From a virus, in UHGV virus genome UHGV-0335474: DNA of 36,185 nt, one strand, 5' to 3'. Every line of letters begins with the position of its first letter. Position 1 is the stretch's first letter. Below, piece after piece: positions 21,971 through 36,185 of the stretch. The translations under genes were made by a program, and so were the position numbers. The notes beneath the pieces were generated by a model that was given only the letters and a program-made list of their open reading frames with translations, made no database searches and was not told where the DNA came from.

Positions 21971-22170
21971 GTAAAGAATGTTGTTTCTGCGGCATTAGCG
22001 AATCAGACGCTGATCAAACATACATTTACTCTAAAGAAACAGGTCGGATGCTGTGTAGTGACTGCGTGTTGGACATCATAAGATACAAGCATCTTGGATG
22101 TTCTGCCAGCATTAGCAATATAGGTGAAGTATATGAAGGGAAAGATATAACTGATAGAGCAGAAAGTTGA
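21967..22170 (+). CDS. Small Cys-rich (zinc-ribbon-like) hypothetical protein
   Basis: 67 aa with CCFC...CSDC; ATGA overlap with the arc-like stop. Confidence 0.4.
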   Translation: MSKECCFCGISESDADQTYIYSKETGRMLCSDCVLDIIRYKHLGCSASISNIGEVYEGKDITDRAES

Positions 22171-22233
22171 AGCCCCAACTGCGGTAACAGTCAGGGCTTC
22201 GGTATCGTAAAACCACGCATAGGAATTAACGAC

Positions 22234-32599: not shown

Positions 32600-32732
32600 T
32601 TTTGGGAACTCCTGGCTGATTAAGTATGTCGATAAGGCGTTTCCATCCATCACGTAATTTACGTGTGATTCGTTCAAGTAAAGATTCGGAAGGGCAGCCA
32701 GCAACAGGCCACCCTGCAATGGCATATTGCAT
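32592..32732 (-). CDS. cIII: CIII (FtsH inhibitor protecting CII)
   Basis: MQYAIAGWPVAGCPSESLLERITRKLRDGWKRLIDILNQPGVPKNG, essentially lambda CIII; AAGGAG SD upstream. Confidence 0.8.
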   Translation of the reverse strand: MQYAIAGWPVAGCPSESLLERITRKLRDGWKRLIDILNQPGVPKNG

Positions 32733-32793
32733 GGTGTGCTCCTTATTTATACATAACGAAAAACGCCTCGAGTGAAGCGTTATTGGTATGCAT

Positions 32794-33029: not shown

Positions 33030-33212
33030 ATGTCTAGCAACAATGTAGATGTAACTTTGTACCCAGTTCATGCCGCCTATCAGGTCGCACTTGAGCTTGC
33101 AAAGGCTGGGGCATTCAACAACTCAAGCGATCGCGGAACTGCTTTCATTAATGCCTTTGACAAGTTGAAAGAAAGGTTTGAGCAAGTTCAGGAAGAATCT
33201 AACAACAAGTAA
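33030..33212 (+). CDS. Small hypothetical protein transcribed against the pL operon
   Basis: 60 aa after an AAGGA SD; the track ORF from 32988 would translate through the second repeat. Confidence 0.4.
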   Translation: MSSNNVDVTLYPVHAAYQVALELAKAGAFNNSSDRGTAFINAFDKLKERFEQVQEESNNK

Positions 33213-33498
33213 GCTTTGCAAAGCCAGCGATAATGTTGCTGGCTAACATCTCAAACCGTTTTTTCTGAATATCTCTTGATTCTTCATCAATTGGGGGTTC
33301 ACTATTGCTTAGTGCCGTTACATATACGCGAATTGCCGCTGACCGGACATCATCAGGAAGATGTTCAAGTGTACTGGCTCTTGTTTGAATAAGTTCTGCA
33401 ATAGTTGCTTTCTTAATATCTTCAGTTTTTTCATCAATTACTGATATAAAATTTTTTACTGATGCTTCCAAGGAGCTTTCTAATTTACTTAAATCCAT
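33199..33498 (-). CDS. Hypothetical acidic protein immediately downstream of N
   Basis: Start at MDLSKLE, 2 nt after the N stop; the track ORF from 33567 overlaps N. Confidence 0.45.
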   Translation of the reverse strand: MDLSKLESSLEASVKNFISVIDEKTEDIKKATIAELIQTRASTLEHLPDDVRSAAIRVYVTALSNSEPPIDEESRDIQKKRFEMLASNIIAGFAKLTCC

Positions 33499-33500
33499 AA

Positions 33501-33884
33501 TTACCTCGCTGTCAGTTGTTTTGATTTCCGATAGCCTGCCGCGTAAAGAGCTACATTTGGAAGACATACACCAGTTTCTGGTTGCTTATGTCCAAACTCA
33601 TTCGCGTACACAACGGCCGCTCGCTCCAGATTGCGTCTGTATTCTTTCTGTTGCCAGATCACGTCCTGTGCCATGAACTTAATTGGCTTAGCGTCTTCTA
33701 TGCGCTCAGGCGTTTCGTGAGTACCTTTAGCCTGAATCTGCGCTCTGCTTAGAGTAGGGCGGTGTAATACTTCTGAACTTATTGCTTCTTCGCGGGCCAG
33801 TACGCCGTTAGCTAATGCCTTTGCCTTTAAATGCTCACGACGACGAGAACGTGAATTGCCTTTGAACTGAGTTCTGCGTGTCAT
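33501..33884 (-). CDS. N: Antitermination protein N (P22 gene 24-like)
   Basis: 127 aa with an N-terminal Arg-rich motif (GNSRSRRREHLKAKA); the C-terminus ...VALYAAGYRKSKQLTAR matches the P22 gp24 end as recalled. First gene downstream of pL. Confidence 0.75.
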   Translation of the reverse strand: MTRRTQFKGNSRSRRREHLKAKALANGVLAREEAISSEVLHRPTLSRAQIQAKGTHETPERIEDAKPIKFMAQDVIWQQKEYRRNLERAAVVYANEFGHKQPETGVCLPNVALYAAGYRKSKQLTAR

Positions 33885-34049
33885 ATAGACCTCCTGATGA
33901 ACTTTGGTGGTGTGGTAGGTGGGAGACCCATTTCGACCTGTTTCGGCCTACTTCAATTCGGCAATAGTCCTGCAGGCCTCGCCGCTTTACGTGCGACATA
34001 TTCCCGTCCATGAACCCTTCACCACACCCCAAAGTTCACTTTGGTTATT

Positions 34050-34064
34050 GCGCTTTGTCAGCGC
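34050..34064 (-). promoter_or_regulatory. nutL boxB (P22-type GCGCTGACAAAGCGC hairpin)
   Basis: Minus strand reads GCGCT-GACAA-AGCGC between pL and N. Confidence 0.6.
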
Positions 34065-34132
34065 CGTAGATTCATATTCGAATCGTTGTATATTCACCGC
34101 CCTGGTGAGTAGTGCGTCCTGCTGATGTGTTT

Positions 34133-34195
34133 AGTATCACCGCCAGTGGTATTTATGTCAACACCGCCAGAGATAATTTATCACCGCAGATGGTT
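34133..34195 (-). promoter_or_regulatory. Lambda-type OL1-OL2-OL3 operators with pL promoter
   Basis: TATCACCGCCAGTGGTA (34135-51), CAACACCGCCAGAGATA (34159-75), TATCACCGCAGATGGTT (34179-95); minus-strand -35 TTGACA and -10 GATACT. Matches the lambda OL region as I recall it. Confidence 0.85.
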
Positions 34196-34352
34196 ATCTG
34201 TATGTTTTTTATATAGATTTATTTTTTTGCAGGGGTGTGTGGCTTGGGAGGTGATCGAGAGATCTGAATTGCGATGTTTAGTGAGTTGTATCTATTAATT
34301 TTCAAATAAATACAATTGGTTATGTGTTATTGGGTGAAGGGGATCGTGAGGC

Positions 34353-34378
34353 AAAGAAAACCCGGCACTGGGGCCGGG
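34353..34378 (-). terminator. timm-like rho-independent terminator at the end of the cI operon
   Basis: Minus strand reads a CCCGGC...GCCGGG hairpin followed by TTTTCTTTG; homologous to the lambda terminator downstream of rexB. Confidence 0.65.
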
Positions 34379-34387
34379 TTGGTTGAT

Positions 34388-35409
34388 TTATAGTTTAACC
34401 ACCATCCTATCAATGGCTTCTAAGCAAGATTGTTTATATGGGGCATTAACTTTTACCCTTCTGTTCATAACTCGTACACTACCTGTTGGTAGGATCGAAA
34501 ATGGACATCCTTTAGCAAAGGCAACAACACCAGTTGTCTGAAAATCTTTAATATTTACCACTCCCTCTTCAATATTTTCGAAGTCGAAAATTTCAGGGTT
34601 ACTTAGTAATAGTTGCTGAATATCATTATCGATTGATTTTAGAACTGCGGCATAGGCTGATGCAGGCCCCATATACTGTGTAAGACGGTTTTTTGCGATC
34701 ATATGAACTTTGGGTAGTGGTCTGCTCACCGCGGTAAGTTTGTTTGCAAATGCGTAGGATGCATAAATATCAGATGGCAACTTTAATCCATAAATCAAAG
34801 AGAAAGCATTTTGAATGGCGCGACGAGAGGAATCATCAGCCATAACTGGCAAGATGAGCTTTTCTACAGCAGCTAATGCTATTTGAGTATAAATTGAAAA
34901 ACTAGGATTACAGTCAATAAATAAAACATCGTACTCATCATTTAGATCTTTAATAAGATCATTAATCCAATCAATGATGCTTACCCATGCATTTGTTCCT
35001 GGAATCTGCTGATTAGCAAGAGTGTTGATGGCGTTTGCTTGAAGCTCAAGAAGCGGGTCACCGCATACCAACGATATATTGGCTGGAATATGTTCGTTGA
35101 ATTTTTTTGGGTGTGTCAAATAATCGTGGGCATCAACAATGGGTTTTTGATAAGGCGTCGGGAGGCGCATTTGGAAGTAGCCACCCAAAGTACATCTATT
35201 ATTTATATCATGCCTAGTCAATAAGTTTATGCTTCCATTACCTATTAACCCCCCAAGAAAAAGCTCTGACAAGTTTGCCTGTGGGCACACATCAATAACC
35301 AACACGCGCTCAAGCGGGTGAATTTCTGCATATCTGCAAATAGCTTGAAATGACAGGCTTGTTTTCCCTGTTCCTCCCTTGTTGTTCCATATAGCATATT
35401 TCTTCATCA
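34388..35409 (-). CDS. ParA/MinD-superfamily ATPase with C-terminal extension, in the rexAB slot
   Basis: Deviant Walker A KGGTGKT, A' motif VLVIDVCPQAN, Walker B YDVLFIDCNPS. Start at MMKK (ATG 35409 or 35406) after an AGGAG SD; the track ORF from 35482 is an upstream extension. Confidence 0.7.
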
Positions 35410-35578
35410 TAAACTCCTGGTTAACGATGTCATTGCTGGTTAATGTTTTACCATTGGTAAAGTGGTGCACCAAGAGTGACACGGTAAACCAAATAGATCA
35501 AGACTTATGGTAAACGATTTACCAGTGGTGACATCGATAACCGAAAAAGACTGCATTTCTGCAGCCTGTTTCACACAA

Positions 35579-36185
<607 letters not shown>

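Follow-up and report, generated by a model that had tools for sequence, protein, structure and literature searches.

Lambda-type OL/pL followed by a probable H-19B/HK97-type nutL and N gene at the head of the early-left operon in a lambdoid prophage

The window analysed here is the whole 36,185-nucleotide stretch of DNA of virus genome UHGV-0335474. The region under study lies on its minus strand and runs from an intrinsic terminator through a set of operators, a promoter and an RNA leader into an antiterminator gene. In the direction of transcription, its features are the following.

34359-34380, minus strand: Timm-like intrinsic terminator, found in a terminator scan and aligning with the annotated Timm of phage mEp234.
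34179-34195, minus strand: operator OL3, AACCATCTGCGGTGATA, identical to lambda OL3 and annotated as oL3 in mEp234.
34159-34175, minus strand: operator OL2, TATCTCTGGCGGTGTTG, identical to lambda OL2.
34135-34151, minus strand: operator OL1, TACCACTGGCGGTGATA, identical to lambda OL1.
34133-34161, minus strand: pL promoter, with -35 TTGACA at 34156-34161, a 17-nt spacer and -10 GATACT at 34133-34138.
34114-34127, minus strand: conserved patch CATCAGCAGGACGC at the transcript start, invariant in a five-way alignment and common to lambda, P22, H-19B, 933W and HK97.
34094-34108 (+19 to +33), minus strand: 5' leader hairpin UCACC-AGGGC-GGUGA, from RNA folds.
34069-34084, minus strand: spacer hairpin GAUUC-GAAUAU-GAAUC, 5' of boxB, from a fold that is thermodynamically weak when taken alone (z = -0.96).
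34050-34064 (+63 to +77), minus strand: nutL boxB, GCGCUGACAAAGCGC, identical to the P22 nutL boxB at 15/15 positions and annotated as nutL boxB in mEp234.
34021-34039, minus strand: 5' arm of a long-range stem, GUGAACUUUGGGGUGUGGUG, from folds and an inverted-repeat BLAST match.
33897-33916, minus strand: 3' arm of the long-range stem, CACCUACCACACCACCAAAGUUCAU, from folds, ending directly 5' of the N ribosome-binding site.
33890-33895, minus strand: Shine-Dalgarno sequence AGGAGG of N, read from the sequence, 5 nt upstream of the ATG at 33884.
33501-33884, minus strand: N antiterminator gene of the H-19B/HK97/933W type (127 aa), 98% identical to HK97 N and near-identical to H-19B N.
33831-33860, minus strand: arginine-rich motif of N, GNSRSRRREH (residues 9-18), aligned with P22 gp24 and, by analogy, the putative site of boxB recognition.
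33504-33593, minus strand: C-terminal 30 residues of N (..CLPNVALYAAGYRKSKQLTAR), the part common with P22 gp24 and, by analogy, the presumed RNA-polymerase-binding end.

The control region at the head of this array is that of lambda. Across OL3 to OL1 and pL (34133-34195, minus strand) 63 of 63 bases are identical to lambda, which amounts to three 17-bp operators with the lambda sequence and spacing, overlapped by a leftward sigma-70 promoter. This promoter agrees with the consensus at 10 of 12 positions and is the sole promoter-like site returned by a promoter scan of 33400-34500. Its transcript is predicted to begin with the A at 34126, based on identity with lambda and on the annotation of the equivalent base in mEp234. 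To judge from work on H-19B, lambda and P22, CI and Cro of the lambda type would bind OL1-3 and control pL. The Timm-like terminator forms the right-hand edge of a block common to lambda, HK97 and mEp234, in which homology begins at 34376-34382. A sequence-only reading of this DNA had delimited the feature as 33885-34210, and these limits are accurate, with 33885 being the base before the N ATG and 34210 lying just past OL3.

That reading proposed a mosaic junction, at which lambda OL/pL is joined to a P22-type nutL and a gene-24-like N within a few tens of base pairs of the pL start. The three parts that it named are all present on the minus strand, namely lambda OL/pL (63/63 bases), a boxB of the P22 type (15/15) and an N protein with a gp24-like end (21/30 residues). 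The position of the joint is likewise borne out by alignment with lambda and P22, in which similarity to lambda decays from +17 to +33 and has vanished by +34. The operators and promoter are 100% identical to lambda, and the figure then falls to 87% from -6 to +17, 62% from +18 to +33 and 38% from +34 onward; this last value is background, and it is reached precisely where lambda has boxA. BLAST homology to lambda extends from 34380 to 34094 at 88.5% and then ends. Beyond +34 two lambda-like islands remain, of 12 and 13 nt, which make up the base of the long leader stem. Alignment also places the leader and N closer to H-19B and HK97 than to P22.

The leader itself is about 242-243 nt long and has four structural elements, which are a 5' hairpin, a spacer hairpin, boxB and a closed domain of 143 nt. 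The 5' hairpin has its stem (CACC/GGUG) in common with lambda and a different loop, and it is the final stretch of similarity to that phage. The spacer hairpin sits where lambda and P22 have boxA. Its stem is invariant over the 78 population loci described below and mEp234, and its loop occurs in five variants, four of them in the loci and the fifth in mEp234. Support for this hairpin comes from the restriction of variation to the loop, without compensatory changes. The element is suggested to match the spacer dyad ('reducer') of the H-19B nut sites, an attribution that goes back to Neely & Friedman 2000, who reportedly described boxA, NusB and S10 as dispensable in H-19B and the 'reducer' as a stem-loop in the spacer.

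No canonical boxA was found within three mismatches of CGCTCTTTA in +1 to +62 of the leader. The mEp234 annotation marks a putative nutL boxA at +11 to +19 (CGCACTACT), which was not adopted here. It has four mismatches to CGCTCTTTA, and its place also argues against it, the stretch being common with lambda, where it is not boxA. The boxB hairpin folds into a 5-bp stem with a 5-nt GACAA loop (z = -3.3), and its DNA, GCGCTGACAAAGCGC, occurs in a single copy in the window even when two mismatches are allowed (0.11 expected by chance). The nutL of the window thus combines a GACAA-loop boxB, a spacer dyad 5' of it and the lack of a canonical boxA, as H-19B-type nutL does. Neither nut sites nor the N leader are represented by an Rfam family, and Rfam gave nothing significant in 33400-36185.

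Downstream of boxB, the 143-nt domain is predicted to be closed by a 19-bp base stem (z = -4.7). Its 5' arm includes the 12-nt CTTTGGGGTGTG, identical to lambda at 12/12 positions, and its 3' arm the 13-nt CACACCACCAAAG, identical at 13/13. The lambda leader follows the same plan as that of the window, with boxB and then a long stem that ends at the N ribosome-binding site, and the 12-13-nt arms are conserved between them. A boxB followed by a closed long-stem domain is predicted in five leaders, those of the window, H-19B, a 339-nt variant, lambda and P22. The interior of the stem (33917-34020) is occupied by three unrelated cassettes in leaders of 243, 206 and 339 nt (loci L008, L020 and L085), across which the base arms are conserved. 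This interior constitutes a second, smaller mosaic within the leader. From the predicted fold and by analogy, the long stem may correspond structurally to the RNase III site of the lambda N leader; like that site, it would probably couple N translation to RNA processing, and it would probably modulate N translation. RNase III cleavage and its effect on N translation are said to have been established for lambda by Kameyama et al. 1991 and Wilson et al. 2002.

The N gene encodes a protein of the H-19B type, with 127 aa, the C-terminus YAAGYRKSKQLTAR and the RSRRRER motif with one substitution (R18H). It is 98% identical to HK97 N, the differences including R18H, I91V and R100K. With P22 gp24 it shares the core of the arginine-rich motif, where F7, G9, N10, R14, R15 and E17 are conserved (F-x-G-N-x-x-x-R-R-x-E), as well as the C-terminal end, where 21 of 30 residues (70%) are identical (E = 1e-10). 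Both proteins belong to Pfam family PF25694 (N_peptide), in which window N scores 55.3 bits against a gathering cut-off of 27.9 and P22 gp24 scores 152 bits. Nevertheless, gp24 has only 100 aa, whereas window N is 27 residues longer and has an unrelated middle, and a three-way alignment of window N, HK97 N and P22 gp24 has only 39 invariant columns. Window N is unrelated to lambda N by BLASTP (E = 1.9) and gave no match to Pfam PF11438 (lambda N36, N-terminal 36-mer MDAQTRRRERRAEKQAQW...), the family in which lambda N falls.

The functional parts of this protein type are known from H-19B. The motif 12-RSRRRER-18 of H-19B N, which binds nut, was defined experimentally, and mutations there abolish antitermination (PMC3526286). 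Its C-terminal domain, residues 101-127, acts on RNA polymerase and is required for antitermination away from nut (PMC3526286); this domain binds RNA polymerase, and the system depends on NusA and NusG (PMC3526286; PMC4499122). The window differs from this background at residue 18 (33831-33833, minus strand), the last of the RSRRRER RNA-binding motif, which is H in the window versus R in H-19B, HK97 and all of the best 80 of 489 IMG/VR loci that encode this N. I91V is a second difference relative to the same set of H-19B, HK97 and all of these best 80 loci. The exact window protein is found on 67 public E. coli contigs, and H18 is therefore a circulating N allele.

A direct recombinant of lambda and P22, produced by a crossover just past the pL start that linked P22 nutL and gene 24 to lambda OL/pL, is very improbable as the source of this arrangement. 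It would explain the 15/15 boxB, an N end 70% identical to gp24 and the first 14 transcript nt, which are those of P22, and it fits with the P22-like virion genes and the sar RNA found elsewhere in the window. However, P22 DNA matches only the 15-nt boxB, the 14-nt CATCAGCAGGACGC (14/14, and also present in lambda) and the last 70 nt of N (77%), with no other BLAST match in the 242 nt of the leader or the initial 310 nt of N. P22 nutL has the canonical boxA CGCTCTTTA 9 nt upstream of boxB and an unrelated spacer, neither of which is present in the window; only the boxB of a P22-type nutL is thus found here, and its boxA and homologous flanks are not. The two N proteins differ in length (127 vs 100 aa), the operators of P22 are of the C2 type, and the block as a whole is 97-100% identical to HK97, mEp234 and H-19B. 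P22 is therefore not the partner that had been proposed. The boxB and the core of the arginine-rich motif are of the P22 kind, and N belongs to the Pfam family of gp24 (PF25694).

Comparison with other lambdoid phages offers a better account. The block from Timm to the N stop codon (34376/34382 to 33503, about 875 nt) is 97% identical to HK97 (NC_002167), mEp234 (EF120460/NC_019715) and HK106 (EF120461/NC_019768) by megablast against phage records, all three being wild phages with lambda immunity. Like the window, they have Timm, lambda-type OL3-OL1 and pL, a boxA-less leader with GCGCTGACAAAGCGC and a 127-aa N, and the mEp234 record EF120460 annotates oL1-3, pL, +1, the nutL boxB and N at equivalent positions. 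The cognate nutR of the present system lies outside the window; that of mEp234 has boxA CGCTCTTTT, a GGAC-ATTC-GTCC dyad and boxB UCGCUGACAAAGCGA. From +1 to +102, a stretch that takes in the spacer hairpin and boxB, the H-19B leader is 100% identical to that of the window, and the N of H-19B is near-identical. In contrast, the operators and repressors upstream of CATCAGCAGGACGC in H-19B and 933W are their own, and the long stem of H-19B has a different, shorter interior, giving a leader of 206 nt against 243 nt in the window. Lambda has in common with the window OL1-3 and pL, the first 17 transcript nt, the 5' hairpin stem and Timm, but it has the boxA CGCTCTTA and the boxB GCCCUGAAGAAGGGC.

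It is thus very likely, judging from these comparisons of sequence, that the region opens the early-left operon of a lambdoid prophage, which carries the lambda-immunity module and the H-19B/HK97/933W N-nutL module as one block and is not a cross of lambda and P22. The first module would be the lambda-immunity control region of OL1-3 and pL, and the second the leader with its boxA-less nutL, spacer hairpin, GACAA boxB and long stem, together with the 127-aa N gene. The joint between them is not a private recombination event, the Timm-to-N block, at 97% identity to HK97, mEp234 and HK106, having been inherited intact. The arrangement itself is one already known from these three phages. The proper annotation is lambda-immunity OL/pL followed by H-19B/HK97-type nutL and N, rather than a lambda/P22 hybrid, and has little import beyond that.

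The joining of these modules was followed further in population data. In IMG/VR, 489 loci encode an N of the window type; the best 80 of the 489 were fetched, and 78 of these could be classified directly by the 25 nt that precede the transcript start. Among the 78, the operators are of the lambda type in 27, the 933W type in 25 and the H-19B type in 14, with eight and four loci in two further types. An earlier BLAST-based count of 42 lambda-type loci was replaced by the figure of 27, the BLAST extension having bridged unrelated operator regions. All five operator types abut CATCAGCAGGACGC, and the shared sequence starts there in 78/78 loci (from the best 80 of 489). One locus among these best 80 shows no difference from the window in the 333 nt that precede N. 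Operators of the H-19B and 933W types occur with the same N module in many Stx phages.

A second survey, a scan for the 14-nt CATCAGCAGGACGC alone, returned 120 loci (L086-L205). The downstream sequence was seen only once in 65 of the 120, which are probably mostly chance matches, and the 58 with a recognised boxB type and a callable N open reading frame were classed as lambdoid pL leaders. The boxB type tracks the type of arginine-rich motif in N: 17 of 18 leaders with a P22-type boxB encode the motif N[AS][KR]xRR, and all 16 with a lambda-type boxB encode RRRERR. The C-terminal end ..RKSKQLTAR, on the other hand, is found with lambda-type, NARNRRR-type and P22-type motifs and assorts freely. 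For this reason nut specificity is indicated by the pair of motif and boxB and not by a P22-like C-terminus, and the gp24-like end of N loses the meaning that the sequence-only reading had given it as a sign of P22 nut specificity. This free assortment agrees with a comparison of phages L and P22, whose N proteins have unrelated C-termini, are interchangeable and recognise the same boxB, so that exchange of the C-terminus leaves boxB specificity in place (PMC8022706). Canonical boxA is lacking in 10 of 10 H-19B-type leaders versus none of the eight other leaders with a P22-type boxB.

These surveys also bear on the idea that the P22-like boxB hairpin arose by chance or convergence and has no nut function, which is barely conceivable. 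In its favour, the match is only 15 nt long and has no canonical boxA beside it. Against this, the hairpin is present once in 36 kb, at +63 of pL, where nutL is expected, and it is invariant in 78/78 classified loci (among the best 80 of 489 IMG/VR loci with the same N) while the neighbouring spacer loop varies. It is, furthermore, associated with the matching type of arginine-rich motif across independent leaders (17/18) and is identical to the nutL boxB of H-19B, whose nut sites were studied experimentally.

In the scan, at least ten operator types lie upstream of CATCAGCAGGACGC and at least eight boxB types lie downstream of it. The patch is the usual point of exchange between immunity and N/nut modules in lambdoid phages. 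Since pL stays with its repressor and boxB stays with its N, the joint must fall between the pL -10 and nutL. Repressor-operator and N-boxB pairs are separate units of specificity, which makes the region a textbook case of modular exchange among lambdoid phages, and the only permissible crossover zone is therefore the stretch of about 60 nt from promoter to nutL. Exchange would be tolerated only there, and the conserved first 14-33 nt of the transcript would supply the homology for it.

Two further ideas, which are rather improbable, concern details of this region. One is that the R18H allele tunes the affinity of N for boxB. The other is that the first 14-33 nt of pL transcripts, that is CATCAGCAGGACGC and the 5' hairpin, may themselves be selected, either as a 'linker' for exchange or as a functional 5' RNA or initial-transcribed signal. 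That lambda, phage 21 and P22 have a conserved pL start was noted as early as the 1980s, and selection on the patch, if true, would mostly restate old observations.

With lambda immunity and an H-19B/HK97-type N module as the preferred composition, a course of events can be sketched from work on H-19B, lambda and P22, these relatives being the source for antitermination, Nus-factor needs and RNase III processing alike. When CI leaves OL, RNA polymerase would start at 34126, and the nascent boxB hairpin would be bound by the arginine-rich motif of N. N, together with NusA and NusG, would then modify the elongation complex through its C-terminal 27 residues. The modified RNA polymerase would read through terminators, and the early-left genes beyond them would be expressed. 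This N module is also the one that drives early gene expression in the Shiga-toxin phages H-19B and 933W, so that the biochemistry of antitermination by H-19B N may be directly transferable, by analogy, to the prophage of the window.

Whether the switch is still active is a separate matter, which turns in part on the repressor gene. The cI reading frame occupies 35579-36185 (minus strand), and within it 35579-36086 codes for the C-terminal part (S24 peptidase) of a lambda-type cI. Homology to cI of lambda, mEp234 and HK97 extends only as far as 36086, and the reading frame continues through the 99 nt that remain of the window. No DNA-binding domain of CI is recognisable up to the window end at 36185, and nothing matching these 99 nt was found among complete E. 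coli genomes, phages (even at word size 11), IMG/VR sequences or GTDB genomes (one per species). Given this loss of homology, the immunity module may not be intact.

It is possible, though unlikely, that the region is a decaying relic in a defective prophage, its switch dead through a broken repressor gene and a mutated N motif. The end of cI homology at 36086, followed by 99 nt that match nothing searched, is in keeping with this, as is R18H in the RNA-binding motif, where another replacement, R18P, is antitermination-defective in H-19B N (PMC3526286). Yet the operators, promoter, boxB, ribosome-binding site and N frame are intact and essentially identical to those of functional phages, and the exact N allele is present on 67 independent contigs. 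The window also ends 99 nt past the break in cI, which could have been caused by an insertion, an assembly artefact or the window edge. Decay of this kind concerns the activity of the region and not its identity, and is compatible with the explanation preferred here.

The surroundings of the block differ among its carriers. Between cI and Timm/OL, the window has a 364-aa open reading frame for a ParA/MinD-like ATPase (34388-35482, minus strand; Pfam AAA_31 and CbiA), where mEp234 has hicAB and one open reading frame, HK97 has gp48/gp49 and lambda has rexAB, the last being absent from the window. The ParA-like protein has no match among PADLOC defence systems, and its exact sequence is absent from a collection of 15 billion proteins. 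At the other end, the N stop codon is the point where homology to HK97 and mEp234 gives out, and it therefore marks another module boundary. The open reading frame directly downstream of N (33199-33497, minus strand; likely start ATG at 33497) has no match in Pfam or PADLOC.

Rfam matches in the window are limited to two RNAs. The first is the lambda cIII thermoregulator (32687-32745, minus strand; RF01804, 88.5 bits), which indicates that the early-left operon includes the start region of a lambda-type cIII. The second is sar, the antisense RNA of the P22 immI (ant) region (22165-22232, minus strand; RF00262, 85.7 bits). Genes for a P22-like portal, ejection proteins and tailspike lie within 5000-26000, and the virion genes of the window are P22-like, unlike those of HK97. 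The phage thus combines a P22-type virion and immI with lambda immunity.
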